The notes below the pieces were generated by a model. That model was not told the origin of the DNA. It searched no databases and saw nothing but the letters and a program-made list of their open reading frames with translations. Of a stretch of DNA of 33,367 nt, positions 9,954-28,003 are shown piece by piece (positions within the stretch are counted from its first letter, which is position 1; each line of letters begins with the position of its first letter). Origin of the DNA: an uncultured Bacteroidia bacterium. GTDB lineage: Bacteria > Bacteroidota > Bacteroidia > J057 > CALLMJ01. The translations under genes were made by a program, and so were the position numbers. The DNA lies in assembly GCA_937922825.1 (NCBI GenBank), contig CALAJS010000217.1:1-33367 (forward strand), in the 5' to 3' direction.

Positions 9954-10384
9954 TTTTCATAGGTTTTGATTTTGATTAAACGGACTTGCGTAGTAATACT
10001 ATCTTTTGTTCGAGAAAATACTAAAATATCAGGTTTTAGAGTATCTATGTTCAATGGAATTTCAAAGTTTGTTTCGCTTTTATGGGTGTACAATTTTTGA
10101 GTTTCTGTATCTATTCTCCATTTGCCTTTTTCTAAACTACCATTCAATTGGATTTCGTAGGTGTTGTCTTTATTAAAAAGGAAATAGGAATTAGGTCTTA
10201 ATTTTTGTATTTCTTCTTGTAATCGGTCGGTATCAACAGACTTTGTCATTCCATGAATTCTATAATTATCAACAAGCCATTTTCCGTGTAGAAGTTTCTC
10301 TTGTGAGGAATGTTCATTACAGGCACATAAAAATAAAATAAAATAAACACAGAGTATACTTCGGGGCAACATATTTTTATGCAA
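9950..10384 (-). CDS. Hypothetical lipoprotein.
   Basis: Signal peptide followed by a lipobox-like LCAC. 144 aa. 4-bp overlap with the downstream gene. Confidence 0.45.
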   Translation of the reverse strand: MHKNMLPRSILCVYFILFLCACNEHSSQEKLLHGKWLVDNYRIHGMTKSVDTDRLQEEIQKLRPNSYFLFNKDNTYEIQLNGSLEKGKWRIDTETQKLYTHKSETNFEIPLNIDTLKPDILVFSRTKDSITTQVRLIKIKTYEK

Positions 10385-10401
10385 AAGTAAAGATTTTATT
10401 A

Positions 10402-11160: not shown

Positions 11161-11212
11161 TTTTACAAATTTAGAACCTTTAAGACGAAAAATTTGTAAT
11201 TTTGCAAAAAAA

Positions 11213-13039
11213 ATGGAAATGAGAAATTTACTTTTTATTGTTCTCGTTGGGATACAATTAGGGTACAGCCAACATAATAAAATAAAATTAGAGCCCGTCT
11301 CGTTATTAAATGTAATTCATATTCAAGAACTTAAAGATGAGCCGAGTATAACTTTAAAAAATATAGAAATTCACGAGCCAGGGATTAAGGAAAGTAAACA
11401 AAAGCAACAAACACAAAAAAAGGCTTCAGAAGCGGATAGTACTTCTTATACTCGAATAAAAAAAACAATGGTAAATGAACCGATTTTGGAAGGTACTTAT
11501 CCAGGTAACATTGCGGGTTCAGGCATACCATTAGACAACCACCTTGCAATATCCAAGGCAGGCAAAATTGTGGCGGTGCAGAACTCCAATTTTGGGGTCT
11601 ACAACACCTCAGGGCAATCACTACAACAAAAAACATTAGATGCTTTGTCACAAAGTTTAGGTTTTAACAACGCAAAATATGACCCCCGAGTGATTTATGA
11701 TCCCCTTCATGACCGCTTCATTATAGTGTACTTAAATGGTTCATCAGCAAATAATTCTCGAATTATAGTGGGGTTTTCAGCTACCAATGATCCAGCTGGT
11801 GCGTGGTTTATGTATGCTCTTTTAGGAAATCTAAAAGATAACCTGCTCATTACAGAAGATGTTTGGACAGACTACCCATCAATAGGTATTTCTACAGAAG
11901 AACTTTTTATAACAGGAAATTTATTCACAGATGCAGGCGTATTTAAAGGTGCAGGTATATGGCAAATCCCTTTAAGTGAAGGTTATATGGGAACTACCCT
12001 CAACCCCGTTGTTTACATTACTTATTATTTTTCTTTGATGCCTGTCACAGGTGCTACCCAACCTTACGGTCCCGATATGTATTTTATTCGTACAAACATA
12101 GGCAATGGTAACCAAATTCATATACATTATCTAACCAATTCCGAAGCGAATGGGGGCGTGTTAAACCCTCCCGTTACTATACCAACTATGCTTAATTACA
12201 GCATGCCACCTGATGCCCCCCAAAAAGGTACCACCCTAAAATTAAGTACTAATGACAACCGCATCCAAACTGCTTATTTGGAAAATAATATTATCGTGTA
12301 TGCTTTCAATACCGGACTAAACGGGCGTTCCTCTATCTATTACGGAACTATCTACCTGAATAGCATGGGATTAAGTTTTGCGTTCGCTGACGCTATCTAC
12401 ATTACAGATTCCCAGTACTCTATTGCTTTTCCGTCGGTGGTGTATGCAGGTTGTGGAAGCCCCGCAGGTAATAATTCTTTACTTTTCGTGGATTTCTCCT
12501 CCCCAAATAACCGACCAGGAATTGGGGCTTTTGCTATTGATGCAAATGGGGATTATTCGGATATGTTAATTGCTTTTGAAGGGACAGGGCAAATCGGATT
12601 CGGTACCAATAGCCCTTACCGTTGGGGAGACTACTCAGGCGGCGCATTACGTCAAGATGGTTCTAATCAAATTTGGTGCTATGGAGCAGTCGGTTCTGTA
12701 ACTGGTTTTAATACAGGTAGACTAGCGCATTTCTCCACAGACCTATGCCAATCTACTAACATTCAACCTAATACAACTACTCATCAAGAATTATCAGTTT
12801 ATCCTGTGCCATGTTACAATGAAGTAACGGTAACTTTTCCTGTTGAGAAAACAGGTGAACTATCGGTAAATTTATTAGATATCCACGGCAGATTCATCCG
12901 TAATCTAGTGACCGATAAATTATACCAAGGTACTGCCCAATTTACTATGTCTGTCAATGAACTTCCCAAAGGAACTTATATTCTTCAAGTTCAAAAAGAT
13001 AATAAAATTTTAGCAAAAAAGAAGATTGTAAAGGAATAA
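11213..13039 (+). CDS. Secreted protein with a type IX secretion system C-terminal sorting domain.
   Basis: N-terminal signal peptide. The C-terminal ~80 aa (LSVYPVPCYNEVTVTF...GTYILQVQKDNKILAKKKIVKE) fit the Por secretion-system CTD pattern. The body is of unknown function. Confidence 0.65.
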   Translation: MEMRNLLFIVLVGIQLGYSQHNKIKLEPVSLLNVIHIQELKDEPSITLKNIEIHEPGIKESKQKQQTQKKASEADSTSYTRIKKTMVNEPILEGTYPGNIAGSGIPLDNHLAISKAGKIVAVQNSNFGVYNTSGQSLQQKTLDALSQSLGFNNAKYDPRVIYDPLHDRFIIVYLNGSSANNSRIIVGFSATNDPAGAWFMYALLGNLKDNLLITEDVWTDYPSIGISTEELFITGNLFTDAGVFKGAGIWQIPLSEGYMGTTLNPVVYITYYFSLMPVTGATQPYGPDMYFIRTNIGNGNQIHIHYLTNSEANGGVLNPPVTIPTMLNYSMPPDAPQKGTTLKLSTNDNRIQTAYLENNIIVYAFNTGLNGRSSIYYGTIYLNSMGLSFAFADAIYITDSQYSIAFPSVVYAGCGSPAGNNSLLFVDFSSPNNRPGIGAFAIDANGDYSDMLIAFEGTGQIGFGTNSPYRWGDYSGGALRQDGSNQIWCYGAVGSVTGFNTGRLAHFSTDLCQSTNIQPNTTTHQELSVYPVPCYNEVTVTFPVEKTGELSVNLLDIHGRFIRNLVTDKLYQGTAQFTMSVNELPKGTYILQVQKDNKILAKKKIVKE

Positions 13040-13085
13040 TGGCACAAAATTTGAACGCATAACTAACATATTAAAAATTATAATT

Positions 13086-13958
13086 ATGAAACTTTTAGTT
13101 CTTTGCATTTTAATGAGTTTTAATTTTACAATATTTGCGCAAAGTTTTTCATTTATTGCAGTAAATGGAGACGTACAATATGAGGAAAAAGGTACTTGGA
13201 AAAAGCCTTTATCAGGGACCAAACTACCTGACGGCGCTAAAATTAAGTTAGGAAAAAACGCTTATGCCGCTTTGTCACACCAAAATAAACAAACAATCGA
13301 ACTGAAAAATGAAGGAAGCTATGCTTTCAATGATTTACAAGCGCAAGCTAATAAGCAACTTTCCAGTATAACTTCTAAATACGTAAATTACATCGTTAAT
13401 AATGCTACTGCAAGAGACCATATCAACACAATGTCTAACAAAGGTATGGTCTATCGAAAACTTGGTAACAACGCTAGTATTTTTTTATATCAACCTCCCG
13501 CACAATCTTTTATTCTAGAAGATATGGTCACTTTTGTCTGGTCACACAATAAAAATATTAAAGAATATATATTTGTGTTGTCTAATGATGAAAAGGAAAT
13601 TTTGCAAAAAGAAATAAAAGATACTATCCTAACCTTGAATATTCAACCTTATAACCTTAAACCTAATGAATGTTACTTCTGGAAAGTTATTCCAAAAGGG
13701 CATGAAGATTTAGAATCCAATGAAGCTTGTATCAAACGATACTCTCAAGAACAGAAAAATACTATCTACCAAGATGTTCAATCCATACAGAATGATTTAG
13801 GAAATACAACCCTTGCTAAAGTTGTTTTAGCAAATTATTATGAAGATAAAAAATTGTATATTGAAGCGTTAAATTTGTATAAGCAAGCGGCAGATAGTGG
13901 TATCCAAGAATATGTTAAATTGTATTATGACTTTCTATCCAAAATTGCAAGGAAATAA
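13086..13958 (+). CDS. Hypothetical secreted protein.
   Basis: Signal peptide MKLLVLCILMSFNFTIFAQS. 290 aa. No recognisable catalytic motif. Confidence 0.45.
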   Translation: MKLLVLCILMSFNFTIFAQSFSFIAVNGDVQYEEKGTWKKPLSGTKLPDGAKIKLGKNAYAALSHQNKQTIELKNEGSYAFNDLQAQANKQLSSITSKYVNYIVNNATARDHINTMSNKGMVYRKLGNNASIFLYQPPAQSFILEDMVTFVWSHNKNIKEYIFVLSNDEKEILQKEIKDTILTLNIQPYNLKPNECYFWKVIPKGHEDLESNEACIKRYSQEQKNTIYQDVQSIQNDLGNTTLAKVVLANYYEDKKLYIEALNLYKQAADSGIQEYVKLYYDFLSKIARK

Positions 13959-13966
13959 TTTTTAAT

Positions 13967-14890
13967 GTGTTGTATATTGAAAATGAGTATCTAAAAGCCG
14001 ATTTTCGTTCTTTAGGGGGTGAGTTAATCGCATTGTGGGATAAAAAAACGCAAACACATCGCTTAAAGGTTGGTAATAAATATTGGTCTTACTATGCACC
14101 AACTCTATTCCCTATTGTTGGTAGAAGTTATAATGATACAATATGGGTAAATGGCGATGCTTTTCCTATGGAGAAACATGGATTTTTAAGAAAAACGAAA
14201 TTGTCAACAACAAATTCTCTTAATCCCCACCAAATTACTTTTGAATTAACTTATAACGAACAAACTCTAAAAGTTTTTCCTTATTATTTCAAAATTTTAT
14301 TAGATTATAAACTTAACCAAAATACTTTAGAAGTAAGCTATCAAATACAAAATATCGTTCCTACTTATGAATTGAATGAAAGAAACGCTATTTTTCCATG
14401 TCAGGTTGGGGGACATCCCGCATTTAATCTTAATGCTTTTGAAGATTTATCCATTCAAGATTATTACCTACAATTCGATAATGAGGAACAGAACACTCGC
14501 CATTTAATCAATAAAGAAGGATATTTCACAGGGCAAACTGAAAAAATACCTATCTATGATAAGAAACTTGTTCTCAATGATAGTTTTTTTGAAAAAGATG
14601 CAATCATTTTGAAAAACGTTCTTTCCCGTTTTGTAGAGTTAAGGAATACAAAAAATTCACATGGAATACGAGTTCAATATAAAGATTGCCTCCAATATTC
14701 AACAAGTATTCAAAATTTTGTTCATTTAGGGCTATGGAAACCTGTACAAGCAGATTTTTTATGTATAGAGCCTTGGTATGGTTGTGCTGACCCAGTAGAT
14801 TTTAATAAGCCCTTTGAACAGAAAGAAACCGTATTATTGATAGAAAAAGGTTCTACGGTAAAACTTACTTATTTTATTACGGTTTTTTAA
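13967..14890 (+). CDS. Aldose 1-epimerase family protein (galactose mutarotase-like). Apparent GTG start.
   Basis: Pattern LFPIVGRS...FPMEKHGFLR...W typical of YihR/aldose-epimerase-like proteins. The start codon at 13967 is GTG. Confidence 0.5.
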   Translation: MLYIENEYLKADFRSLGGELIALWDKKTQTHRLKVGNKYWSYYAPTLFPIVGRSYNDTIWVNGDAFPMEKHGFLRKTKLSTTNSLNPHQITFELTYNEQTLKVFPYYFKILLDYKLNQNTLEVSYQIQNIVPTYELNERNAIFPCQVGGHPAFNLNAFEDLSIQDYYLQFDNEEQNTRHLINKEGYFTGQTEKIPIYDKKLVLNDSFFEKDAIILKNVLSRFVELRNTKNSHGIRVQYKDCLQYSTSIQNFVHLGLWKPVQADFLCIEPWYGCADPVDFNKPFEQKETVLLIEKGSTVKLTYFITVF

Positions 14891-14934
14891 GTTTTATTAA
14901 GAAACTAAACATATTCTTTTTACGTAGAATTTTT

Positions 14935-15591
14935 ATGGAAAGTAAACAATCTCATACGCTTGCTTATATTTTAGGGTTTGCAATGTTGCTCTTTTTGATA
15001 CAATTTATTCAATTTTTGACTCATTGGGATTTTTCTATTTTGGGGATTTATCCGAGAAGTTTTACGGGTCTTATTGGGATTTTTTGGGCTCCTTTGTTGC
15101 ATGGGAGTTTTGGGCATTTCAGTTCTAATTTGTTAGTACTATCCATTGGGCTTTTTATTTTATTTGAATTTTACCGAAAATGGGCTTGGGAAATCTTATT
15201 ATGGATTTGGATTGTGGGCGGTTTGATGGTATGGGCTTTTGGACGTGAAAGTTATCACCTTGGTAGCAGTGGCTTAATTTACGGTATCAACTTCTTTATT
15301 TTAACTACGGGAATTATACTACGAAATTTTAAAACGGTTGCGCTAGCTTTAGTTATTATTCTGATGAATCAAGGGATGTTTTGGGGGCTCTTCCCCACTG
15401 ATACGCAGGTTTCATGGGAAGCGCATCTTTTTAGTGCTATTATAGGTATAAACTTGTCATTGCTCTTGAAGAAAGAGATTAAGCAGGATTTAATCTCTAA
15501 TCAACCTGAAACAGCAATAAATGAAGAACTATCAGAAGAGGTGTGGAACTATCCTAAGCATTATTATCACCATAAAGGATTAGAAGAATAG
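14935..15591 (+). CDS. Rhomboid-family intramembrane serine protease.
   Basis: Six TM segments. Catalytic GxSG motif (GSSGLIYG) and a downstream His in a TM segment (AHLFSAIIG). Confidence 0.7.
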   Translation: MESKQSHTLAYILGFAMLLFLIQFIQFLTHWDFSILGIYPRSFTGLIGIFWAPLLHGSFGHFSSNLLVLSIGLFILFEFYRKWAWEILLWIWIVGGLMVWAFGRESYHLGSSGLIYGINFFILTTGIILRNFKTVALALVIILMNQGMFWGLFPTDTQVSWEAHLFSAIIGINLSLLLKKEIKQDLISNQPETAINEELSEEVWNYPKHYYHHKGLEE

Positions 15592-15593
15592 AA

Positions 15594-16385
15594 TCATTGG
15601 TAATTGGGTTTTCTTTTCTCAGAGACAGCGGCAATCATTTCCATAAAATCGGGGTTTATTAAATTTTCACTGTTCCATTTAGCGATATAAGCAAGACCTT
15701 CCTCGGGAGTTTTATTCCATTGATAATTAAGGAGTTGTTTAACTCCGGTAAGAATAAATTGCGAATTTTGTCCAATTTTTTGAGCAATTTTGATTGTTTC
15801 CTGGATAAGAACTTCCTGATTTTCATATATAGCAGAGATTAGTCCCCAGGAATAAACTTTTTCTGCGGAATAATCATCACCAGTAAAAGCCATGAGGCGA
15901 GTATGATTTTGCCCAATAATAGCAGGTAATCGATTTAAGGACCCTAAATCCGCTACAATAGCCATTTGGGTTTCCCGTAAAGAAAAGAAAGCGTCTTTGG
16001 AAGCAAAGCGCAAATCACAAGCTGATATAAAATCTAATCCACCTCCTACACAAGCTCCATGCACTGCCGCAATATGAACCTTTTTACTGTTCGCAATTTG
16101 AATAAAAGGTTTTTGTAATTCCGTAATTAACCGGTTAATTGCTTCCGAATCTTTTGAAAACAATAGCGATTGATAGTTGATAAAAAAATCCATCAAATCC
16201 AAACCTGCGGAAAAACCTTTTCCCCTTCCAGCCCATACAATCACTTTAAATGCAGAATTTTCCAATTCGTCTAATAAAGTAGCAATCTCGCTCCAAAAAA
16301 CTTTATTCATAGCGTTGATTTTATGGGGACGGTTAAAATAAATCAGCGCTACGTTTTCATGGGGTTCAACTTCAAAAAATTCCAT
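15594..16385 (-). CDS. Enoyl-CoA hydratase/isomerase (crotonase) family protein.
   Basis: Oxyanion-hole region AVHGACVGGGLDFISACDLRFAS and typical length. Confidence 0.8.
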   Translation of the reverse strand: MEFFEVEPHENVALIYFNRPHKINAMNKVFWSEIATLLDELENSAFKVIVWAGRGKGFSAGLDLMDFFINYQSLLFSKDSEAINRLITELQKPFIQIANSKKVHIAAVHGACVGGGLDFISACDLRFASKDAFFSLRETQMAIVADLGSLNRLPAIIGQNHTRLMAFTGDDYSAEKVYSWGLISAIYENQEVLIQETIKIAQKIGQNSQFILTGVKQLLNYQWNKTPEEGLAYIAKWNSENLINPDFMEMIAAVSEKRKPNYQ

Positions 16386-16386
16386 T

Positions 16387-16902
16387 TTATTCTTTGATGG
16401 TTTCGCCGTTGGCTACTTTTTTAATTAGCTCATAAAGTTTTTCTTCATCACCATTCGTATAGGAATTATGGTCCCAGACAATATTTTTGTTGCCATCTAT
16501 CAAAAAAGTATGAGGAACATTATTCACTCCTAATTCCCGTTTAAAGTCAGAATTTACGTCTAAATAAACTTCATATTTCCAGTCTTTTCCTTTCACTATA
16601 CTGGGAACTTTTGCAGTATTTCTAGCATCATCAATAGAAATGGCAATCAATTTTACACCTGTTTCTTTTTGCCATTCTTCATAAACTTCAGCTATATTCA
16701 CTAATTCCTGAATACATGGTTTACACCAAGTTGCCCAAAAAGAGAGAATGATAGGCTTGCCATTATTATCAAAGTCTTTAGTATTAAATGATTTACCGTC
16801 TAGTGTTTTAATATTTACAGAAGGTATCGGTCTTTTACTCTGAGCAAGTAGTTGTAAGCCGATAAAAAATAACATTAGAATAATTAAAAAATTTTTTTTC
16901 AT
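16387..16902 (-). CDS. TlpA-like thiol:disulfide oxidoreductase (thioredoxin fold), secreted.
   Basis: Signal peptide followed by the WATWCKPC active site. Confidence 0.8.
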   Translation of the reverse strand: MKKNFLIILMLFFIGLQLLAQSKRPIPSVNIKTLDGKSFNTKDFDNNGKPIILSFWATWCKPCIQELVNIAEVYEEWQKETGVKLIAISIDDARNTAKVPSIVKGKDWKYEVYLDVNSDFKRELGVNNVPHTFLIDGNKNIVWDHNSYTNGDEEKLYELIKKVANGETIKE

Positions 16903-17045
16903 ACTATTCTCGATTTTTTGAATTGATACGCAAAAATAAAGCCAAATATTAATAAAAAAAACAATTCTACGTATTTTAATCGTAAGTTTATCATGGAAAA
17001 CAGTAACTTTTTCAATGTTAGTAAGTAAAACTTAAAATTGTATCT

Positions 17046-17504
17046 TTGCGTTTTTTGTTAAAAGTAATGGAACAATATCAACAAATATTCATTCAGGTTA
17101 TTGAGGAGATGATTCCTTTTAATAAATTTTTAGGATTTCAATTAGAGGAGATTAGAGCGGGATTTGCTAAGATACGAGTTTCATTTAGGGAGGAATTTAT
17201 TGGGGACCCGCGTAATCGTAGGTTACATGGGGGATTATCAGCGACCTTAATTGATACGGTAGGAGGAGCCGCCGCCTTAACTACTCTTACTTCTTTTGAT
17301 GACCAAATCGCTACCATTGATATGCGTGTAGACTACCTAAAACCAGCTAAAGCAGAAGACCTTATCGCAGAAGGACAAATATTAAGAAGCGGAAATCGTA
17401 TTGTTGTATGTGAAATGAAAGTTTATCAACCTTCAAGTAAAGAGATTATTGCCGCAGGAAAAGCGGTTTACAATGTTATTAGGAAAAATCCCAAATCAGA
17501 ATAA
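17046..17504 (+). CDS. Hotdog-fold (PaaI-type) acyl-CoA thioesterase.
   Basis: HGG motif (LHGGLSATLIDTVGG) characteristic of the PaaI/YbgC thioesterase family. Confidence 0.7.
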   Translation: MRFLLKVMEQYQQIFIQVIEEMIPFNKFLGFQLEEIRAGFAKIRVSFREEFIGDPRNRRLHGGLSATLIDTVGGAAALTTLTSFDDQIATIDMRVDYLKPAKAEDLIAEGQILRSGNRIVVCEMKVYQPSSKEIIAAGKAVYNVIRKNPKSE

Positions 17505-17527
17505 TTTCTAATTCTTTTAACTAAAAA

Positions 17528-17559
17528 GCTATTGAAAGATTAAAATATCTTTCAATAGC
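17528..17559. terminator. Hairpin between convergent genes (13-bp perfect stem, 6-nt loop). Likely terminator for hpf and possibly bidirectional.
   Basis: GCTATTGAAAGAT-taaaat-ATCTTTCAATAGC. On the minus strand it is followed by TTTTTAGTT. Confidence 0.55.
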
Positions 17560-17579
17560 CTCTCAAGAACTTTGGATAC

Positions 17580-17882
17580 TTAATTGCGGATTTTTTCTTT
17601 GTATTTAATGATTTGTTTCTTTAAAGAATCCACACAAATATCCGTGGCTTCCTCAAAAGTTTTACATTGTTCTTCTGCAAACAGCGTTTTTGAGGGAACA
17701 AAAACTTTAATTTCCACGATTTTGTTACCATCTTCTTTAATTTTTGTGTTTTGAAGTTTTAGTAACACTTCAACGTTCACAATACCATCAAAGAATTGCG
17801 TTAATTTTTGGCATTTTTCGTTAATGAACTGCAGTAATTTTTTGTCTGCGTCAAAGTGGATGGATTCAATGTTTACTTTCAT
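17580..17882 (-). CDS. hpf: Ribosome hibernation-promoting factor / ribosome-associated inhibitor A.
   Basis: 100 aa. N-terminus MKVNIESIHFDADKKLLQFINEK and overall pattern typical of the RaiA/HPF short form. Confidence 0.75.
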   Translation of the reverse strand: MKVNIESIHFDADKKLLQFINEKCQKLTQFFDGIVNVEVLLKLQNTKIKEDGNKIVEIKVFVPSKTLFAEEQCKTFEEATDICVDSLKKQIIKYKEKIRN

Positions 17883-17911
17883 ATCCGTAAAAATTTAAAA
17901 GTTAAATATTA

Positions 17912-18811
17912 CTACGATTTAGGATGTGCTTGTTTATAAATCGATTTCAGTTTGCTAAGGGTATTATGGGTATAAATTTGTGTTGCCGCTAAATTTGCGT
18001 GACCGAGCATCTCTTTTACGGCGTCAATTTCAGCGCCATGATCTAATAAATGCGTTGCAAAAGTATGCCTTAATATGTGTGGTGAATTCTTGGCTAGTTT
18101 GGTATATGCAAGCAACGCATTCTTAACTATTCTATACAATAGTTTATCGTACATGGGCATCCCGTTCTTTCTTACTAACAAAACCTGATTTTTTATACCA
18201 TGATTTTGACAATACGCTTCATATTTCTGTATGCAATTTTTCGTACTTTCATTAAAAGGGACTATACGAGTTTTATTACCTTTCCCCGTGACTCTCACTA
18301 ATTGATTATTCAGGTTTATATCTTTCCATTGAACATTTAATAATTCTGACCTACGTAAACCTGAAGAGTATAAGAACTCTATAATCAACTGATTACGAAG
18401 TTGTTCAAATTCAGTTTTCCACTGAATATTATTGAGTAAATTTTCCATATCTCGTTCAGGGACAAAGTGAGGTATCCTTTTAGGTTTCTTGGGAGACAAC
18501 AATTTCCGCGTAGGATTATGCGTTAGGTTCCCAATTTTTTGTTGATACTTAAAAAAGTTTTTTATGCTTGCTATTTTTCGGCGTATCGATGAAGCATGCA
18601 AACCCTCTTCGTATAACTTTCTTAACCATAGCTTTAAATGATTGTGGTGAAGATTTTGAATATTTGAAAGCTCAAAAAAATCTTGGGGGTTTCTATTTGC
18701 GGATAGAATACGTGCAAATTGCATTAAATCTGATTCATAAGCAGTTAGAGTATGCTCTGAACGTTTTTTTTCGTATTGTAAGTATCGGAGAAATGGCTCA
18801 ATTGTATTCAT
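17912..18811 (-). CDS. Tyrosine site-specific recombinase, XerC/XerD type.
   Basis: C-terminal catalytic box HILRHTFATHLLDHGAEIDAVKEMLGHANLAATQIYTH with the catalytic Tyr. N-terminal SAM-like domain. Confidence 0.8.
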   Translation of the reverse strand: MNTIEPFLRYLQYEKKRSEHTLTAYESDLMQFARILSANRNPQDFFELSNIQNLHHNHLKLWLRKLYEEGLHASSIRRKIASIKNFFKYQQKIGNLTHNPTRKLLSPKKPKRIPHFVPERDMENLLNNIQWKTEFEQLRNQLIIEFLYSSGLRRSELLNVQWKDINLNNQLVRVTGKGNKTRIVPFNESTKNCIQKYEAYCQNHGIKNQVLLVRKNGMPMYDKLLYRIVKNALLAYTKLAKNSPHILRHTFATHLLDHGAEIDAVKEMLGHANLAATQIYTHNTLSKLKSIYKQAHPKS

Positions 18812-18984: not shown

Positions 18985-20511
18985 CTAGTATTTTGTTACA
19001 AATCTACTTTCTCTCGCTTTGGTAATCCCCGTATCAATATACTCTATAATCTTGTGATTGAGCTTCTCATATATATCTTCCTCAATTTTTAATATTTTTC
19101 TAAACTCACGAAAAAGTAAATTAATCTCATCTATATTGTCTGGGTAAATTTTCTTTTTAGCTTTTTTTAGTTTTTTGATGATTGTTGTATGGGAAAAAGA
19201 ATCCACTCCATGCGCAGCGATAGATTCATTCCGTAAACTTTTCAAATCTTTTACGTAATTTTTAAAATTCATTTTTTGTTTGAACTCAGGGGAATTCTCT
19301 AATTCTTTATCATGTTCAATAAAATAATTCAGCAAATTTTCTGTAAGATAAGTAGTAGGATTATCCTCTAAATACCTTATTTCTTTTTTTTCTAAATAAA
19401 GTTTTAAATCTTCTTTATCAATTCTTTGATTTTCCTTGTCATTTAAATATTTTTCAAATTCTTGCTTCCAATCGTTTTGTTCAGGATAATTTATTCCAGT
19501 AATGTTGATAACTTCTTGTAATTGTAACATTTCTATAAATCGGAAGATTCTCAAAAGGAAATCATCATAATCACCTTGTTGAAACTTTATGAAACAACTG
19601 TAATACAATTGTCTCATCGTAAATTTTTCTTTGTCCAAATCTTTAACATCATTAATGAGTAGTTCAATAAAGCTATCCTCGGATTTTGGGAAATGTTTTT
19701 GGTTATTTTCTAATGTTTGAATGGCTTTTTCAGGTTGAAAAATCAATCGGTTGTGGGCGTATTCTGCGAGCGTTCGGATTTTAATATCAATCGAGTGGAG
19801 TTCCAGTATAGCGGCATAGTTATATTTTTCAACAAACCTACGAGCAAATTTATATTCTAAAACCGTATAAAAACGTGTTTTTATATCTATTTTAAAACTT
19901 TGTTTTCTTTTTTCATCTACCATTACCTCCACCAAAGACTTATCTTGGGAATATAGATGTAGTACTACAAAACGAACGGCGTTATTGATAGCGTCTATAC
20001 CACCAACTAAATGTAAGTATAAATTTTCACTTTCAAAAATTTTTTCTTTAAAAGGAGAAGTGGATAGTTTTTCTAACATGAAATCATACATATCATGCAG
20101 ACTTATTACGTTTTCATGGACAGGTAAATGATAGACCTTAACATTTGGATACTTTTTTATGAGAAATTTTTCTAATACCATTCCAAAATAAACGGTATCT
20201 TGATTGTGTTTTTCGTATTGGTCTGTTGCTACCAAAACCACATTATCCAATGTAATTCCTTCCTGCTCAACCATTTTAAGAGTAGGTGTAACAATTGGGA
20301 AGTCAATGTAATCTAGAAAAAAACTAAAATAACGATAAAGAAATTCTCCCAATACTCTTGCAGGAATATTATAAATAGATTTATTACTATTAGTTTCCTT
20401 TTTTAGTTGAGTATATTCCTCTAGGATTTGCGGAGGAATATTGGTATGAGTAAAATCTTCTGTTTTTAATTGTATGTCTCGGGTTCCAAGTGTTATAATT
20501 AATGTATTCAT
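18985..20511 (-). CDS. csm6: Csm6-type CARF-HEPN ribonuclease.
   Basis: The N-terminal Rossmann-like CARF pattern (IITLGTRD...VVLVATDQ...LHLVGGIDAINNA) resembles Csm6/Csx1 LGTS and TSGTK motifs. The C-terminal HEPN motif R-x6-H reads RNESIAAHG. It is the last gene of the csm operon. Confidence 0.65.
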   Translation of the reverse strand: MNTLIITLGTRDIQLKTEDFTHTNIPPQILEEYTQLKKETNSNKSIYNIPARVLGEFLYRYFSFFLDYIDFPIVTPTLKMVEQEGITLDNVVLVATDQYEKHNQDTVYFGMVLEKFLIKKYPNVKVYHLPVHENVISLHDMYDFMLEKLSTSPFKEKIFESENLYLHLVGGIDAINNAVRFVVLHLYSQDKSLVEVMVDEKRKQSFKIDIKTRFYTVLEYKFARRFVEKYNYAAILELHSIDIKIRTLAEYAHNRLIFQPEKAIQTLENNQKHFPKSEDSFIELLINDVKDLDKEKFTMRQLYYSCFIKFQQGDYDDFLLRIFRFIEMLQLQEVINITGINYPEQNDWKQEFEKYLNDKENQRIDKEDLKLYLEKKEIRYLEDNPTTYLTENLLNYFIEHDKELENSPEFKQKMNFKNYVKDLKSLRNESIAAHGVDSFSHTTIIKKLKKAKKKIYPDNIDEINLLFREFRKILKIEEDIYEKLNHKIIEYIDTGITKARESRFVTKY

Positions 20512-20523
20512 GATAAAAATTAG

Positions 20524-21645
20524 TTAAAATAATGTAAATTTAACAAAACCAAGTGGTGTTCCATCTGATAAGTATCTACGAGTTTTGGGATAAATATCTT
20601 TGTAATGGGCTCTTGGGTCAATTTTTTTTATTTTATCGGATTTATTTTCAATGAAAGAAAAATCTAACCAACCACCGGTCATACCGATATAGCCTAAACC
20701 AAAACCTACACGAATATAAAATTCATTGGGTTTCTTATTATTCATTTTATGAATTAAATCATTAAGTTTATCTAAATATTTTTCAATGGTACTATCACGG
20801 TTTTTATCTAATTGTTCATAATCTTTTTTACATATTTTGATGGTTTGGTCGTGCATGATTTGTAAAAAGGTTTCAGTATTTTCTATTTTGGAGAATACAT
20901 TAACATTATCTGGATAATTTCCTTTTAATAATAATTCGTTATTTTTTAGATATTTATAGGCTGTTATTTCATTGGGAGTTTGTAAATCTACTAAATAGGA
21001 TTGTTTAGGCGAGATACATTCAATAGGTTGCATAACGTTAGGTCTTCCTTTGATTTGGTATTTCCATTCACTACCATGTTTATTTGCAATTTGGACGGAA
21101 TAAATTTGGGTATTTTCAAAATGGGCGTCGTAAATTCTTAAAAACTTCATGAGATTGTTTTGAGTTTTATTAAAGAGATAATCTAAAAGCGGAGCATCCT
21201 TAGGTTTATCGGATTCAAAGCATTCATCAAGTTTTTTTAGAACATGGGTATCTTTTCCAGCGATAGATTTACGAACAATAAGCGTTCTTAAAGCGCCTTT
21301 CAAGCTAGAGCCAGGGATATAAGGTTTTCCCATACCGTTACGAATATTAGATTTAATTTCTTTTTGATAGAGTTTACCGACAACAGGAATTTCACGTGAT
21401 GCTATCTCTTTAGGGGATATACTTCCTGAGATACCTTTGATAAGATTTACGATATTAGTGGAGTCTTCTATGGCGTCTACCCATCGGTCTATGTTATTTT
21501 CTCCAATGTAATGATATACTTTTTGGGGGTCTATGATATAAATTTTTTGGGCTTTCTCGTCATAGAGATAGTCTAGATTTTCATATAATTTTTGCCCTGA
21601 ACCGATATGGACGGGCGTAATGGTTTCAATTTGAATTTTCGTCAT
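20524..21645 (-). CDS. csm5: Csm5 (RAMP, Cas7 group).
   Basis: N-terminus IETITPVHIGSGQKLYENLDY matches the Csm5 consensus. G-rich loop YIPGSSLKGALRT. Confidence 0.75.
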   Translation of the reverse strand: MTKIQIETITPVHIGSGQKLYENLDYLYDEKAQKIYIIDPQKVYHYIGENNIDRWVDAIEDSTNIVNLIKGISGSISPKEIASREIPVVGKLYQKEIKSNIRNGMGKPYIPGSSLKGALRTLIVRKSIAGKDTHVLKKLDECFESDKPKDAPLLDYLFNKTQNNLMKFLRIYDAHFENTQIYSVQIANKHGSEWKYQIKGRPNVMQPIECISPKQSYLVDLQTPNEITAYKYLKNNELLLKGNYPDNVNVFSKIENTETFLQIMHDQTIKICKKDYEQLDKNRDSTIEKYLDKLNDLIHKMNNKKPNEFYIRVGFGLGYIGMTGGWLDFSFIENKSDKIKKIDPRAHYKDIYPKTRRYLSDGTPLGFVKFTLF

Positions 21646-22681
21646 AATTTTTTAAATAAATTTTAAGGAATAACGATTTACCACAACGAGGAATAGGATG
21701 TCCTACATTTTCATCAGGTCTTAAATCTACAATTTTTCCTGATAGTTCATTTGGTGAAAAAAACAAAGAACCTTCTTTGAACATATAAACGCTTTTTTTT
21801 CTTTTACCTGCCCAATATTTATGAGTAGTGCTACTAATATAACCGCCGCATTTGATAAAATCGTAATTAGCATTTTGCAAAATTCCTTGTTGTACTTCTT
21901 CTATGGTTGGGCAGTACAAAGATAAATTGATTGCAAAGTTTGTATTTTCGGGATACTCAAAAGATACAGCGGAAGGGATATATTCAAAATCAAAAGTTCC
22001 CCAGCCGTAAGTTCTATCTCCCCCAAGACCATTATCCCCAAGCAACCTAAAAACGGATTCTATCTCTTTGTTGTAAACATTCGGATTTAACAAACAATAT
22101 AAACCTGCTTCTGGCATAAATTGTAGAGATTGCGTGTAGTAAGGAACGGACATTTGAACCATTTCATGGTTAACTTCACTTACTGAAATGCTTGCTCTTT
22201 GGTATTCAGCTAATTTAAATAGGGGTTTTATAGGTTCTGAATTCTGAGACGAAAGAGTTAGGAATAATTCGTCTTTACTAAATGCGTTCAGGGGAATTTT
22301 TATAGAAGTTTGGGGATTTAAAAGAACGTATTGCATAGCGTATTGGTCCAAAAATTGGAGGTTTTTAAATTTTTTGTGATAGGATATATCAGGAGTACTT
22401 TCTGCAATCTCGAAAGGCAAGCGGATAAAAGGTTTAGGGAAAAATAATTGGTCTTTATAGAAGGGGAAAGCACTACTGATTTGGGCGAGTTTATTTTGCC
22501 ATTCGATATTTTGTTCGGCTTGCCAAGGACCGAATAGTTCTAACGCTAAATAATAAAGGGCGGCTTTCAAAGTATCAGAGTGAACTACATGAAAAAGTTG
22601 GCTTTGGTCTCCTTTAGCTATACTTAATTGTAGAGGCTGCCGAAAATGTAGTTTTACTACATCAAACGTTTGCTTTTTCAT
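21626..22681 (-). CDS. csm4: Csm4 (RAMP, Cas5 group).
   Basis: N-terminus KLHFRQPLQLS...HSDTLKAALYYLA fits the Csm4/Cmr3 pattern (xSDTLFSAL). C-terminal glycine-rich region. Overlaps csm5 and csm3 as in compact csm operons. Confidence 0.7.
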   Translation of the reverse strand: MKKQTFDVVKLHFRQPLQLSIAKGDQSQLFHVVHSDTLKAALYYLALELFGPWQAEQNIEWQNKLAQISSAFPFYKDQLFFPKPFIRLPFEIAESTPDISYHKKFKNLQFLDQYAMQYVLLNPQTSIKIPLNAFSKDELFLTLSSQNSEPIKPLFKLAEYQRASISVSEVNHEMVQMSVPYYTQSLQFMPEAGLYCLLNPNVYNKEIESVFRLLGDNGLGGDRTYGWGTFDFEYIPSAVSFEYPENTNFAINLSLYCPTIEEVQQGILQNANYDFIKCGGYISSTTHKYWAGKRKKSVYMFKEGSLFFSPNELSGKIVDLRPDENVGHPIPRCGKSLFLKIYLKNYDENSN

Positions 22682-23399
22682 AGTTAGTAAATAAATTGCG
22701 TAAGGTTTCGTTTTGGGGTATGGGATAGTCTTTTTCTTGTTCTTGGAATTTATAGAAACCTGCTGTTCTTTCTTTTATTTCTTGAATGAAAAACTTTACT
22801 TTTCCGTAACCTCTTGAACCACAGCCACCTAAATAGTCATTTTCGATTAACAATAGCCCCGCAAACGTATCATTTACTAATTGTTTTTCGTCATCAATAT
22901 CAAAGATATTGAGCACCATATTCAAGCGGAAACGAGCTTCTGCTGGAACACGCTCAAATGTTCTCGGAGTTGCGGCAGAAGTAATTCTATCTATTACTAC
23001 TTCTGTTTTACTTTCCGTGTAGGGCAAATCCGTATTTACGAAATCTTTATCGTCATTTAACAAATCCGCATCATACACTATAATACGTGAAGATCTTTGT
23101 TTTTCATCTCCTGACGAGCATCCAAATAATTTAGAAGAGTTCGTATTCGGATTTTCGGATGGTCCGTTATTTACTTTTCCCATAGATTTATTACCAATTG
23201 TTCCGTCACGAATCTCAATTAGACTACGCATTTTTCCTTTAATGGAACTTCCAGGAATATAAGGCTTGTTTGTCAAGGGGTTACGAATCACAGGACTATC
23301 TACTCCCCCAATGGATAACACCGAGGAACTTCCCCCCACTCTTATGCCACTCAATGCTTTAATTTCACCTTTGATAATAATTTTTTTTACTAACTTCAT
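22662..23399 (-). CDS. csm3: Csm3 (RAMP, Cas7 backbone subunit).
   Basis: ALSGIRVGG...PYIPGSSIKGKMRSLIE is the canonical Csm3 G-rich loop. 245 aa. Confidence 0.8.
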   Translation of the reverse strand: MKLVKKIIIKGEIKALSGIRVGGSSSVLSIGGVDSPVIRNPLTNKPYIPGSSIKGKMRSLIEIRDGTIGNKSMGKVNNGPSENPNTNSSKLFGCSSGDEKQRSSRIIVYDADLLNDDKDFVNTDLPYTESKTEVVIDRITSAATPRTFERVPAEARFRLNMVLNIFDIDDEKQLVNDTFAGLLLIENDYLGGCGSRGYGKVKFFIQEIKERTAGFYKFQEQEKDYPIPQNETLRNLFTNYEKANV

Positions 23400-23414: not shown

Positions 23415-23837
23415 TTAATTTCCACCATGTGCTTTGTGATACGCTAATATTGCTTCTAATAAGTCTACGTAATTCTTAAACTTTTTTTCTAAGTTTTCTT
23501 CATTCGAAATTACGGCTTGATGTGCTTTACTCATTAAATCTTTGAAAAGGTCTAGCCCTGGCTTATTTGCACGTTTAGCTGTGTAAGCTAATTTGGGCTT
23601 TAGCATGTAGAAGGCATTTTTTTCGCTTTGAATACCTTTCATTTGAATGCGCTTAACCTCACCAAAGAAATTTCGTATTTGCGAGGTAGTTAAATCTCCA
23701 TTTTTGATTTCTTTTGCGAAATTTTCACAATACTCAATAGTTTGGGAATCAAACCCATCGGTTATCCAACTGGATTTAAAATCCTCCAATATTTTTCTAT
23801 TGTTGGTTTCTTTGTTTTTTGTTGGTTTTGAGTTCAT
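23415..23837 (-). CDS. csm2: Csm2 (Cas11 small subunit).
   Basis: 140 aa with a helical composition, sitting between cas10 and csm3. The conserved small-subunit segment TSQIRNFFGEV is present. Confidence 0.65.
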   Translation of the reverse strand: MNSKPTKNKETNNRKILEDFKSSWITDGFDSQTIEYCENFAKEIKNGDLTTSQIRNFFGEVKRIQMKGIQSEKNAFYMLKPKLAYTAKRANKPGLDLFKDLMSKAHQAVISNEENLEKKFKNYVDLLEAILAYHKAHGGN

Positions 23838-23852
23838 ATTATTATTGAATTT

Positions 23853-26123
23853 TTAATTTTCGGAACGAATTTCTAATTCTGCCCAGCGAGCGGCTACGCC
23901 TACTAAATCTATATAATCATAGTCGCTGTATGATTTACTACTATTTAATAAGCAATCTTTTTGTAATTGCTCTAAAAATAATTTTAGGTCTTGGTTATGA
24001 CGGTTTGAGTCAATCATTCTTTTGATGTGATAGGCTAGCAACCATTTCCATTGTGGATTTTGTTTTTTTTCTGTGAGTTCTTTTTTTAGTTCGTAGAAAT
24101 TCATTAGTTTGGTTATCAAGGATTTATTTATATTTTGTACGGTAATAAAATTAACGAACTTATTTTTTAATTCTTTGACTTTAGGGAATTCTTTTTCCCA
24201 GTTCATAGGGAAATCTAAGAAGGTGATAGCGTTTTTTTCTTGATCTTTACAGCGGTGTTTTTTAGATTTTTTTTCTGCTTCATGGGATAAATTGGCGGCT
24301 TGAAGGATGGGATATTTATTATTGACGAGTACTATGCCGCCTGATAAAGTAAAATAGGGATTATGGGCAACCCATTGCTTAAATTCTGTATAGATTTGTT
24401 CTGCGAACAGGACTACTTGTTTCCAATCGCCAATTACAAAAAGGTCATCTCCTCCTGCATACAGGATATTGATATGATTTTTATATTCATTTTGTTCACG
24501 TAGGAGATAAAGGTAACCTCGGAAAAAGTAATCGAGGCTTCTACTGATATTGGATAAGCGTACGATAGTTTTTTGGGATCCACTTAAACCGTTCATAAAA
24601 ATTTGCCCTAGGTTGTCCACGTCCATACGTAGTATTCCTAAACGTTTCAAACTTGTACTTGCAAGTAGGTTTTCAAAACTAGTTACTTTTTGGCTTTTGC
24701 TGTAATTCCATTTTAATCTGGATTGGAAATTTGTGGGCACTTTTTCGTGAAAATGAATATAGCGTAACGTATCCATGGATAGGGGTTGTCGGGGTATATT
24801 ATCATATACTTTACAGCCCCAACCAGAAAAGGGGCTTTTTATCGTGACGTCTCGGGGTAACGTTTTATGCATCAAATGAATTTCTTTCATGTCCACTAAA
24901 CATTCCCCTAACTTAATTAAGCGTTTGGTTTGCTCCGATAATATTAAATTTTCACTTTCTCCGTATTCTTCTACTTCTTCGCCTGTGATGCGGTCTATTT
25001 CGCTTTCTATATTTCCCCAAGGCTCAAAAAAGCTAACATAATTTTTTTCTATGATGAGATGGTATTTTCTACGTTTTTTTGCATTTAAAATTTCTGATAA
25101 ATTACGCCATTTTTCGTGGATTTTGTATTGTTTTATATCTAATGGTGATAATGTAGTATATCCTAACGAAAGATATAACTGCATTTTGTGGATACTTAAT
25201 AGATCTTGTTGTATTTTTTTTTCTATTTCATGAAACTCTGAACGTATCTTTTCCGTATTCGGTGCTAATAAATAAAAGCCTCCTCCCGATACATAAACAA
25301 TGTGGGATTGCGTTAAATCTAACGTACGGATGAGTTCTTGTACTGCCCATTCCGTGATTAACTGTAAATAATAGGAACGTCCTTTTAGATTTTTTCCTGC
25401 TGATTTATTGATTACATCATATATAAATGCTTGTATGCCCGATAAATCTCCTCCAATCAACAAAAATACGGGCAGGTCTTCTTTTAAATTTTCTATTAGG
25501 TCTATATTTCCTAACTCACTGACCACGTAATCATAAATACTCAAACTTATACCATTGAAGAATTGTAAGTAATCATAATAAGAAATATCGGTAGGTGCAG
25601 TAGTGTAAGGTATAAAAGAAGTATATTTTTGTAGTAAACTTAGCAGATTATCATTAAAATATAGCAGGTTCGGGCTTGATACATTTTTACATTCTTCCCT
25701 AAATTCTGACCATATTATCTGATAATCGGTTTGTATGGTATCTATTTTTCTTTCTTTTAGTTTTTTGGGGAATATTCGTTGTTGAAAACTAAATATTTCT
25801 GATGGGTAATAGTATTTTTCGGTAGTTTTTTTATCCCATTCCTTTACACTTTGAGCGACTGGTATCAAATAATTATCTTTTGTTTGCTCTGATATAGTTT
25901 CTGTTACTACCAATCTTTTTGACCATTCTTGTAACGTTTTGTACCATTTAGAATTATAGATATTTGATACTTGATATTGTATTTCGTTCCACTTTGGTTC
26001 GAGGCAACTTTCCATTAATGTTTTTACCTCTTCTGTGTTCTGGTTTGCCCTTTTACACAAGCCTTCAATATGGCTAATTTGATTACGTAAATATAAATAA
26101 TTTTTTTCGTTTTCTGGTATCAT
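23853..26123 (-). CDS. cas10: Cas10/Csm1 large subunit. It carries Palm/GGDD cyclase domains but no recognisable N-terminal HD motif.
   Basis: Palm1 reads LLIGGDLSGIQAFIY (the GDxxGIQxFI pattern) and Palm2 reads ILYAGGDDLFVIGDW (GGDD). No H-D dyad could be found in the first ~150 aa. Confidence 0.8.
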   Translation of the reverse strand: MIPENEKNYLYLRNQISHIEGLCKRANQNTEEVKTLMESCLEPKWNEIQYQVSNIYNSKWYKTLQEWSKRLVVTETISEQTKDNYLIPVAQSVKEWDKKTTEKYYYPSEIFSFQQRIFPKKLKERKIDTIQTDYQIIWSEFREECKNVSSPNLLYFNDNLLSLLQKYTSFIPYTTAPTDISYYDYLQFFNGISLSIYDYVVSELGNIDLIENLKEDLPVFLLIGGDLSGIQAFIYDVINKSAGKNLKGRSYYLQLITEWAVQELIRTLDLTQSHIVYVSGGGFYLLAPNTEKIRSEFHEIEKKIQQDLLSIHKMQLYLSLGYTTLSPLDIKQYKIHEKWRNLSEILNAKKRRKYHLIIEKNYVSFFEPWGNIESEIDRITGEEVEEYGESENLILSEQTKRLIKLGECLVDMKEIHLMHKTLPRDVTIKSPFSGWGCKVYDNIPRQPLSMDTLRYIHFHEKVPTNFQSRLKWNYSKSQKVTSFENLLASTSLKRLGILRMDVDNLGQIFMNGLSGSQKTIVRLSNISRSLDYFFRGYLYLLREQNEYKNHINILYAGGDDLFVIGDWKQVVLFAEQIYTEFKQWVAHNPYFTLSGGIVLVNNKYPILQAANLSHEAEKKSKKHRCKDQEKNAITFLDFPMNWEKEFPKVKELKNKFVNFITVQNINKSLITKLMNFYELKKELTEKKQNPQWKWLLAYHIKRMIDSNRHNQDLKLFLEQLQKDCLLNSSKSYSDYDYIDLVGVAARWAELEIRSEN

Positions 26124-26124
26124 T

Positions 26125-26820
26125 TTAATGAACTTTTGTAATCGGCTCTTTTATTACTGCTTTCTGAACGGTCCCGTATCCTATACTTGCTAATTTACCA
26201 ATATTCACATCTATTGGTAAGGTCATATTCACTGAAAAGTCAATATCTAAATTATACAATTTGATACCTTTATAGTTTATCCATCGTTCTTTTCTTATAT
26301 CTTCTATTACTGCTTTTATAGGGGATTCTAAGGTATATCGAATACCTTCCGCAAAATTGATGATATGGGCTACTAGGATTCTTTCTAACATTTCTACCCG
26401 AGCTTTTAACGAATAGGTCTTAAAATACATTTCATAATTTTTGGAGTTTAGGGGCAACCAATTCTTTAAACGATATCTTACTTGCTCGTCCCATACTTGG
26501 ATAACTATGGGTTTTAAATACATATTTTCTATATTTAACTCTCTTCTTTTGCCATGGAAGTCTATGTATAAAGGGGGATTTCCTATATGAGATAGTAAAC
26601 AATCACTAGCTTCTTCTAAACATACTAAATGGGCTTTTTCGTCTTTTGTATTAAACTGTGCCAAAGGATAACGAAACCGTTTACTTCCGTCTTCTAAATG
26701 ATGATGAAAATACTCTGCTCCTTCTTGTATCTCTTTTGAAAATGCATAACGGAATGCTCGTATTTCTTCGGAGTTAATCCCTAAATCAAAAGTTAGACCT
26801 ATATATTTCAACTTTTTCAT
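26125..26820 (-). CDS. cas6: Cas6 crRNA-processing endoribonuclease.
   Basis: First gene of the operon, 231 aa. The C-terminal G-rich loop NIGKLASIGYG compares with GIKTSLGMG in characterised type III Cas6. Confidence 0.55.
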   Translation of the reverse strand: MKKLKYIGLTFDLGINSEEIRAFRYAFSKEIQEGAEYFHHHLEDGSKRFRYPLAQFNTKDEKAHLVCLEEASDCLLSHIGNPPLYIDFHGKRRELNIENMYLKPIVIQVWDEQVRYRLKNWLPLNSKNYEMYFKTYSLKARVEMLERILVAHIINFAEGIRYTLESPIKAVIEDIRKERWINYKGIKLYNLDIDFSVNMTLPIDVNIGKLASIGYGTVQKAVIKEPITKVH

Positions 26821-26870
26821 CTTTTGTTTTATTTTTACGTTTTTATCTGCAAAAATAAAATAAAGTTTTT

Positions 26871-26917
26871 TATACGAAAATTTTTTTTACTTAATTGTAA
26901 AAAAAATTTTCGTATAA
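26871..26917. promoter_or_regulatory. Near-perfect 47-bp palindrome in the cas6/csm promoter region. Candidate operator.
   Basis: TTATACGAAATTTTTTTTAC-TTAATT-GTAAAAAAAATTTTCGTATAA. The arms differ by a single T. It lies 50-100 bp upstream of the cas6 ATG. Confidence 0.4.
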
Positions 26918-27018
26918 ATTTGTAAGCAATTAAAGTTCTTTGAAATCAAGGGATATTATCTAAAAATATAGGTGCTGTGAAGCACTAATCTTAAATTTTA
27001 AATTCTAATTACTATTAA

Positions 27019-27472
27019 GTGTATATACTATCTATTAAGCGGTGTTTTCTGCAACTTATTATCTGTTTCATGAAAAGTGTATACACTATTGAAATTATAA
27101 ACAAGAAATTGTTTATGACTTCGTTACCACAATAAGCGTAGCAACACCAAACCTTTTAATAAGTTAAGTTGCTACGCTTTATTCTTTTATAGGAGATTAT
27201 TTCCAATTTGTTCTTTGATAGTTAAACTAATTTTTATACTTTTGCTAAATATTAGAATTCAAAAATTGAGCTTTTACATAAAAAAACAATGTAAAAAAGT
27301 GTTAAAAATAAAAAAAAAGGAGAAATAACCATTTGATATTGAGATAGTTATGAATTATCGGTGTATATACCATCTAATTAATAGGAGTTCACAACTTAAA
27401 AATATGGCATACGATGAGATCATTGGGTGTATCCACCATCTGATCAGTAGGTGTCCACAACTATCCACATAT
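27019..27472. repeat. Cluster of four degenerate copies of a 36-45 bp direct repeat upstream of cas6. Possible vestigial CRISPR array.
   Basis: Copies begin at 27019, 27077 (partial), 27361 and 27427, each starting GTGTATATAC(C)ATCTA. Copies 3 and 4 match at 29 of their first 36 positions and lie 66 bp apart, as expected for a 36-nt repeat plus a 30-nt spacer. Confidence 0.35.
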
Positions 27473-27492: not shown

Positions 27493-27942
27493 TTAAATAT
27501 CTAATATAGCCATTGTTAGGCGACTAATACAGGTAAGTTTGCCTTTTTCATTAGTGATTTGGATATCCCAGACGTGTGTAGTTTTTCCTAGATGGATAGG
27601 GGAGCATTTGCCAAATACATATCCATGAGTTTCAGAGCGAATATGATTGGCGTTGATTTCTAAACCTACGCATTTTTTGGTAAGTCCAAGATGAGTAATA
27701 TAAAGTCCTGAGGCAGTTGAGCCAATAGATTCCGCTAAAACTACGGACGCTCCCCCATGTAGTAAACCGAATGGTTGTTTCGTTTTAGCGGTCACAGGCA
27801 TTCTTGCCACTAAATAGTTAGGTCCAATTTCTATAAATTCAATCTCTAAAAATTCTATCATGCAACCTTTTGAAAAATCGTTTAATTGTTTCGGAGTAAC
27901 TTCTGGAAAAATTTTTTCTGTCATATTTTTTGATTTAAACAA
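27493..27942 (-). CDS. Hotdog-fold thioesterase (PaaI/DHNA-CoA hydrolase-like).
   Basis: GLLHGGASVVLAESIGSTA motif. 149 aa. Confidence 0.7.
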   Translation of the reverse strand: MFKSKNMTEKIFPEVTPKQLNDFSKGCMIEFLEIEFIEIGPNYLVARMPVTAKTKQPFGLLHGGASVVLAESIGSTASGLYITHLGLTKKCVGLEINANHIRSETHGYVFGKCSPIHLGKTTHVWDIQITNEKGKLTCISRLTMAILDI

Positions 27943-28003
27943 TAAAACTAGATGTAAAGTTTAAGATTCTTCGTAATTTATATAAAAAAAGTAATTTTGT
28001 GTA

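Follow-up and report, generated by a model that had tools for sequence, protein, structure and literature searches.

Cas10 proteins without a recognisable HD nuclease domain are already familiar from type III CRISPR-Cas systems, a recognisable HD domain having been found in 39% of 1113 type III loci and 65% of III-A loci, and cyclase motifs in 92% (Hoikkala et al.; PMC11229360). HD-less Cas10 has been characterised biochemically in the III-B Cmr systems of Vibrio metoecus, together with NucC (PMC8682760), and Bacteroides fragilis, together with CorA (PMC10600005). The solved III-A Csm complexes (L. lactis, S. thermophilus, E. italicus and S. epidermidis; chains 9ash_A, 6ifn_A, 9g9j_A and 7v01_F) contain instead a Cas10 with an active HD single-stranded DNA nuclease (ssDNase). 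Here we describe a type III-A operon on a contig of an uncultured Bacteroidia bacterium (CALAJS010000217.1, assembly GCA_937922825.1; the 33,367-nucleotide stretch analysed is called the window below), whose Cas10 has lost the HD domain but keeps both Palm motifs, and which ends in a Csm6-family gene. It would probably defend its host by RNA cleavage and cyclic oligoadenylate (cOA) signalling.

The window locus is a complete type III-A CRISPR-Cas operon, compact and on the minus strand, in the order cas6b-cas10-csm2-5-csm6. All seven open reading frames (ORFs) are intact, neighbours overlap or abut, and Csm1 to Csm5 each scored above the cut-off of their NCBIfam equivalog. The genes, and the motifs and module discussed below, are as follows (all minus strand):

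26125-26820, minus strand: cas6b, a CRISPR RNA (crRNA)-processing endoribonuclease of 231 amino acids (Pfam Cas6b_N, 1.6e-14; Cas6b_C, 4.3e-28)
23853-26123, minus strand: cas10/csm1, 756 amino acids (TIGR02578, 482 bits against a cut-off of 170, residues 27-753; PF22335, 120.6 bits; PF18211)
25794-26123, minus strand: Cas10 residues 1-110, an N-terminal module of about 110 amino acids in the position of the HD domain, with no HD residues
25422-25451, minus strand: Palm1 motif GDLSGIQAFI, Cas10 residues 225-234, read from the translation
24444-24455, minus strand: Palm2 cyclase motif GGDD, Cas10 residues 557-560, read from the translation
23415-23837, minus strand: csm2, the Cas11 small subunit, 140 amino acids (PF03750, 3e-24; TIGR01870, 66.7 bits)
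22662-23399, minus strand: csm3, the Cas7 backbone, 245 amino acids (TIGR02582, 205.7 bits)
21626-22681, minus strand: csm4, a Cas5, 351 amino acids (TIGR01903, 186.8 bits; PF17953)
20524-21645, minus strand: csm5, 373 amino acids (TIGR01899, 90.8 bits)
18985-20511, minus strand: csm6/csx1-family CARF-HEPN effector, 508 amino acids (PF09670, PADLOC, Foldseek)
19210-19233, minus strand: HEPN catalytic motif RNESIAAH, effector residues 427-434

With the solved III-A systems the window shares the gene set cas6, cas10, csm2-5 and csm6. The Cas10 proteins are of nearly the same length (~757 against 756 amino acids) and the same fold (template-modelling [TM] score 0.75-0.81), with aligned GGDD and Palm1 motifs, at an identity of ~20-22%. 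In contrast to the solved proteins, the window Cas10 has zero HD residues; its Cas6 is of the Cas6b type, and its Csm6 matches Csm6 structures by fold only. As proposed here for the window, the V. metoecus and B. fragilis Cmr systems combine an HD-less Cas10 with immunity through a nucleotide-activated ancillary effector; however, they are III-B systems using cyclic triadenylate (cA3) with NucC and S-adenosylmethionine-AMP (SAM-AMP) with CorA, whereas the window is III-A with a CARF-HEPN RNase.

To place the window Cas10 among its relatives, it was used as query against 5.8 billion proteins, which returned one identical sequence, one 78%-identical sequence (P0002) and then only proteins of 31-38% identity, mostly 830-890 amino acids long. 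The closest of these belong to an HD-intact Bacteroidota Csm1 clade (Thermoflavifilum [locus L006], Emticicia, Spirosoma, Fibrisoma and Phaeodactylibacter; 33-38% identity, up to 42% from Palm1 onward), which has the operon order cas6b-cas10-csm2-5-csm6 and the Csm6 family in common with the window. Whereas Csm1 of this clade is 830-890 amino acids long and matches the HD family PF01966, the window Cas10 has about 50 fewer residues ahead of Palm1 (223 against a median of 273 in relatives) and every HD-motif residue is replaced. In an alignment of 118 relatives we defined conserved HD columns as pre-Palm1 positions at which at least 70% of the sequences share H or D, ten of which lie in the HD domain proper; none of the ten is kept in the window Cas10 or in P0002. 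About 100 of the 118 carry YLAALLHDIGKF...HKHV...HH.P...QxADHxSSGxDR (the LLHDIGKF...HKH...HH...ADH..DR pattern). In MAFFT alignments the HD dyad of these relatives falls on S17-H18 of the window protein (nt 26070-26075), the HKH and HH motifs fall within a deletion, the A-D-H...D-R block is replaced, and at the DVSLYDH motif just ahead of Palm1 the conserved His has given way to Tyr185. H18 is the single His in residues 1-220, which contain zero HD dipeptides. An earlier note on this DNA, made from the sequence alone, had claimed that the Cas10 N-terminus has neither an HD dyad nor an HD-like pattern, and the alignment it proposed as a check bears this out.

Profile searches gave the same picture. 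Pfam matched the palm2 and Csm1_B families in full-length Cas10 but not PF01966, and the isolated N-terminal 220 residues gave no PF01966 match even at E<=10, while three relatives run as positive controls in the same search scored 27-32 bits (cut-off 22). A clade-specific HD hidden Markov model (HMM), built from 96 HD-intact relatives, scored 2.1 bits on the first 110 residues, whereas 200 shuffled sequences reached up to 6.1 bits and several other degenerate relatives still scored 11-50 bits. With hhalign, only residues 84-123 aligned, and they did so to the segment that follows the HD domain. Given the lost columns, the HMM score at shuffle level and the hhalign result, the HD domain is gone at the sequence level, not merely mutated. 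We also considered residues 1-80 as a recognisable HD vestige, and rejected this, since neither hhalign nor the clade HMM (200 shuffles) gave significant similarity; for the same reason we speak of a module in the HD position and not of a vestigial HD fold.

The cyclase half of the protein is kept. In alignment, Palm1 pairs with FDMSGVQNFIY from the L. lactis Cas10 structure and Palm2 with YAGGDDLF of solved Cas10, and the residues that are invariant in the 118 relatives (G224, S228, G229, Q231, K247-S250, G280-G281 and G557-D560, including the KNLKGRS and SGGG positions) are all present. An AlphaFold2 model of Cas10, computed from the 118-sequence alignment (mean predicted local distance difference test [pLDDT] 88, predicted TM score [pTM] 0.91), has the Csm1 fold, and Foldseek matched it to solved Csm1 chains of L. 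lactis, S. thermophilus and E. italicus, ATP- and cOA-bound chains included, at TM 0.75-0.81. Both Palm signatures reported in the earlier note thus hold in the translation, in the TIGR02578 and PF22335 profiles and in the model, and the window Cas10 is, as judged by sequence, cyclase-competent.

The 508-residue protein at the end of the operon is a CARF-HEPN member of the Csm6/Csx1 family. It passed the Pfam Csm6 HEPN model PF09670 (31.8 bits against a cut-off of 27) and PADLOC profiles for Csx1 (2e-42), Csx1/Csm6 CARF+HEPN (4e-32, residues 1-490) and CARF1--CARF_HEPN (8e-29, residues 1-492). In 66 members of the family, the HEPN-motif residues R427 and H434 never vary and N428 hardly does; also invariant are G9 and D12 after strand 1, Q98, D105 and G171 in the GGIDAIN loop. 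Word-indexed homolog searches found just 4-6 proteins, while an exhaustive HMM search showed the family to comprise 1447 representatives (at 50% identity) at E<=1e-3 and 439 at E<=1e-30. A PDB sequence search returned zero matches with either the single sequence or the 66-member profile. The AlphaFold2 model (pLDDT 86) consists of an alternating beta/alpha N-terminal part (residues 2-208) and a helical C-terminal domain, and its best Foldseek matches are EiCsm6, StCsm6' and TtCsm6 (E ~4e-7, probability 1.0, TM 0.4-0.5), followed by Csx1, CARF ring nucleases and other CARF proteins. Like EiCsm6 (6tug), StCsm6' (8pe3) and TtCsm6 (5fsh/8jh1), the protein joins a Rossmann-like CARF domain to a helical HEPN domain with an R-x(4-6)-H motif, and its place as the last gene of the csm operon is one common to known Csm6s; it differs from them in sequence (12-15% identity, TM 0.4-0.5) and in length (508 against 380-460 amino acids). 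The earlier claim of a Csm6 with a CARF-like N-terminus and an R-x6-H motif is therefore upheld by Pfam, by PADLOC from residue 1 onward and by fold. Since cyclic hexaadenylate (cA6)-binding and cyclic tetraadenylate (cA4)-binding Csm6s are both among the top fold matches, we leave the choice of ligand unassigned.

Separately, we observed that a 70%-identical ortholog of this effector (P0122, positions 7305-8807 of locus L001) has a two-residue deletion in the HEPN motif (RNEVVHG against RNESIAAHG in the window), which turns R-x6-H into R-x4-H.

All seven genes are under purifying selection. A sister locus (L001), whose Cas10 is 78% identical, carries these seven genes in unchanged order, and codon alignments against it gave ratios of nonsynonymous to synonymous substitution rates (dN/dS) of 0.07-0.24 for all seven, with 0.10 for the Palm2 region of Cas10 (dS 0.4-1.5, partly saturated). 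The earlier note had paired the HD-less Cas10 with Csm6; the pairing is real, but it is ancestral and not compensatory. The HD-intact Thermoflavifilum metagenome-assembled genome (MAG; L006) shares this operon, the final gene of which encodes a homolog from the same Csm6 family (26% identity, E 8e-21); the pairing is therefore older than the HD loss and did not arise in response to it. Most HD residues are missing from 15 of the 118 Cas10 relatives, and Fitch parsimony on a neighbour-joining tree of the Palm-to-C-terminus region gave at least 10 independent changes to the HD-less state among these Bacteroidota sequences, as a rough estimate. As a recognisable HD domain is known in just 65% of III-A Cas10s (PMC11229360), the configuration is not novel: an HD-less, cyclase-positive Cas10 is a common and documented arrangement, of which the window is a divergent further example.

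Three observations concern the surroundings of these relatives. The sister cassette is followed by a gene for an fn3/PhoD-like secreted protein (L001, 9078-13971) and the window cassette by xerC-hpf (17580-18811), so that the genomic surroundings of the seven-gene module differ between the two MAGs. A Cas10 with a partly decayed HD domain (P0024; L005, 9001-11448), which keeps LLHD while the other motifs are gone, is encoded by a solo cas10 with no csm2-5 neighbours, within a type I restriction-modification/Fic/EVE-domain defence island. The locus of another HD-less Cas10 (P0119; L004, 2443-16090) has an upstream CorA-family gene, MJ1673/MJ1674-like genes, a helix-turn-helix (HTH) regulator, a PIF1-type helicase and cas1, and a 468-residue neighbour of this Cas10 is not homologous to the window Csm6.

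We consider it likely that immunity at this locus runs through Csm3 RNA cleavage and cOA-activated Csm6, with no contribution from a Cas10 ssDNase; the earlier note had suggested cOA signalling and RNase activity in place of the ssDNase. The absence of HD and the intact cyclase and HEPN motifs support this reading, and in what follows the gene identities, motifs, folds, selection and array are as observed, while the cOA ring size, the phenotype and, from what is well established for type III-A systems, the enzymatic activities are those we infer. Cas6b would process the array transcript, and the crRNAs would load the Csm complex, which would bind complementary invader RNA. Csm3 would then cut the bound transcript; its GGVDSP motif holds D34 (GVDS, nt 23295-23306), which we take to be the target-RNA-cleaving Asp of characterised Csm3 (SeCsm3 D32/StCsm3 D33). 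Target binding would also turn on the intact Palm1/Palm2 (GGDD) cyclase of Cas10, and the cOA so made would be bound by the neighbouring Csm6-family protein at its CARF domain and would switch on the HEPN RNase of that protein (R427...H434), with collateral RNA degradation leading to growth arrest or abortive infection. Cas10-mediated cleavage of single-stranded DNA would be absent. To leave the growth arrest induced by Csm6, a cell lacking the Cas10 nuclease would depend on host nucleases or other means of clearance (PMC11708336).

The locus would thus add one more natural III-A example, from a barely sampled Bacteroidia lineage, of a system expected to defend purely by RNA cleavage and cOA-Csm6 signalling. 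Current understanding is unchanged by it, since a published survey already reports no recognisable HD domain for about one in three Cas10s of subtype III-A and for the majority across type III. HD-less systems are nevertheless of use as natural separation-of-function variants for studying Csm6-only immunity and exit from dormancy without Cas10 DNase (PMC11708336), and as DNase-free chassis for Cas10-based RNA diagnostics.

Several points weigh against this account. The Cas10 N-terminus holds a conserved, confidently folded module without an assigned role; the nearest solved Csm1 is only ~22% identical to the window Cas10; the signalling product could be something other than cA4 or cA6; neither cas1, cas2 nor a ring-nuclease gene was found within the 33-kb contig; the window array has two repeats only, one of them degenerate; and no protospacers of three spacers were found in viral contigs.

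The first of these points leads to the alternative that survives best, namely that the helical module of about 110 residues has taken on a new role, such as docking of a nuclease or regulator, non-HD catalysis or ligand binding, so that DNA-level defence may persist. In the AlphaFold2 model, residues 6-72 form a four-helix bundle (helices 6-25, 31-41, 45-57 and 59-72; pLDDT >90), while the stretch from residue 72 to Palm1 is less regular. Residues 1-110 are 68% identical to those of the sister locus at a dN/dS of 0.15, and the module showed no similarity to any Pfam family or to the HD profile. The structure prediction proposed in the earlier note thus refines its claim: the N-terminus is HD-less as stated, but about 110 residues remain, folded in the model and under purifying selection. 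However, purifying selection is equally expected for a structural role, since in solved Csm complexes the HD domain is packed onto the remainder of Cas10. Moreover, the operon contains no candidate partner gene, the module has one His and few clustered acidic residues for metal binding, and only two sequences carry this version, too shallow a set for covariation or motif analysis. We therefore regard a new role of this kind, with DNA-level defence persisting, as unlikely; that the module has been neofunctionalised at all, for example as a docking or regulatory surface, and is not dead scaffold, we hold to be rather unlikely. If it were so, a picture of recurrent selection in Bacteroidota against the Cas10 DNase would emerge from this neofunctionalisation and the 10 or more independent HD losses taken together.

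A second alternative is that the locus is a decaying, non-functional remnant in which HD loss is part of a general erosion, and the missing cas1/cas2, the short array and the unmatched spacers all speak for it. The array and the region between it and cas6b are as follows:

27426-27461, minus strand: degenerate terminal CRISPR repeat GTTGTGGACACCTACTGATCAGATGGTGGATACACC, cas-distal, adjoining a thioesterase gene
27396-27425, minus strand: single 30-nt spacer CAATGATCTCATCGTATGCCATATTTTTAA, between the two window repeats, for which viral contigs gave no exact match
27360-27395, minus strand: cas-proximal CRISPR repeat GTTGTGAACTCCTATTAATTAGATGGTATATACACC (0 matches expected by chance), the same as the at least seven repeats of the L002 contig
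26821-27359, no strand assigned: AT-rich intergenic region between array and cas6b, putative leader/promoter

The two window repeats lie 66 nt apart start-to-start, which is the array period in L001 and L002. The sister locus (L001) has its array immediately upstream of cas6b: a 36-nt CRISPR unit occurs there at least 11 times, separated by 30-nt spacers. L002, a contig from the same sample with an identical Cas10, is base-for-base the same as the window up to the cas-proximal repeat and then continues with at least seven perfect repeats and other spacers. Since these perfect repeats stand at the same place, a longer array has most likely collapsed in assembly to the two repeats of the window. 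As no cas1/cas2 lies on the contig, any genes for adaptation must stand at another place in the genome; it is common for type III loci to lack an adaptation module of their own. The seven coupled ORFs are intact, their dN/dS is 0.07-0.24 against an ortholog diverged at dS 0.4-1.5, and the cyclase, Csm3 Asp and HEPN residues are all in place, so that a remnant is very unlikely.

Finally, that an HD domain is present after all, through a mis-set cas10 start (a check raised in the earlier note) or as a cryptic or split domain nearby, is extremely improbable, since the cas6b stop lies 1 nt ahead of the cas10 ATG with two in-frame stops 11-12 codons upstream, so that no N-terminal extension is possible, the sister-locus Cas10 starts at the same point and is likewise HD-less at its N-terminus, and no HD-family Pfam match was found in the neighbouring ORFs at 13967-18811 and 27493-33235 (ORFs at 1-13958 lay outside the scan). 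An HD-less, cyclase-competent Cas10 acting with Csm3 and Csm6 therefore remains the preferred reading.

With regard to the array itself, a search of Joint Genome Institute (JGI) metagenomes with the repeat gave no match. The degenerate repeat stands at the cas-distal end, which suggests a leader between array and cas6b and divergent transcription of array and cas operon. Within the intergenic region, at 26869-26918 and ~50 bp upstream of the cas6b start, two 22-nt arms (TTTATACGAAAATTTTTTTTAC / GTAAAAAAAATTTTCGTATAAA) form a perfect inverted repeat around a 6-nt loop, possibly an operator or terminator; when the matching L001 region was read, nothing comparable stood out. The putative leader also contains, at ~27015-27104 and 27130-27175, two sequences similar to the CRISPR repeat's 3' half (..ATAGTGTATACAC and ..GATAGTATATACAC) and, in the same stretch, a hairpin with a 12-bp stem (AAGCGTAGCAAC...GTTGCTACGCTT); old repeats may have left these elements behind, or they may be regulatory.

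Beyond the operon and array, the operon is followed downstream by genes for an XerC-like recombinase and then HPF, and preceded upstream by the 540-bp AT-rich region, the CRISPR repeats and housekeeping genes. Two thioesterase genes flank the cas/xerC/hpf block; that they are duplicates marking an insertion was ruled out, as they show no mutual similarity. Rfam matched three tRNAs only in the window: at 5610-5859 a tRNA-Lys(UUU) is duplicated in tandem, the copies being identical over the tRNA, and is followed directly by a tRNA-Leu(GAG). At 8282-8423, inside the ORF at 7629-8870, three direct copies of a 40-nt unit occur at 51-nt spacing (a 17-codon period), and this ORF probably encodes a repeat-containing protein.

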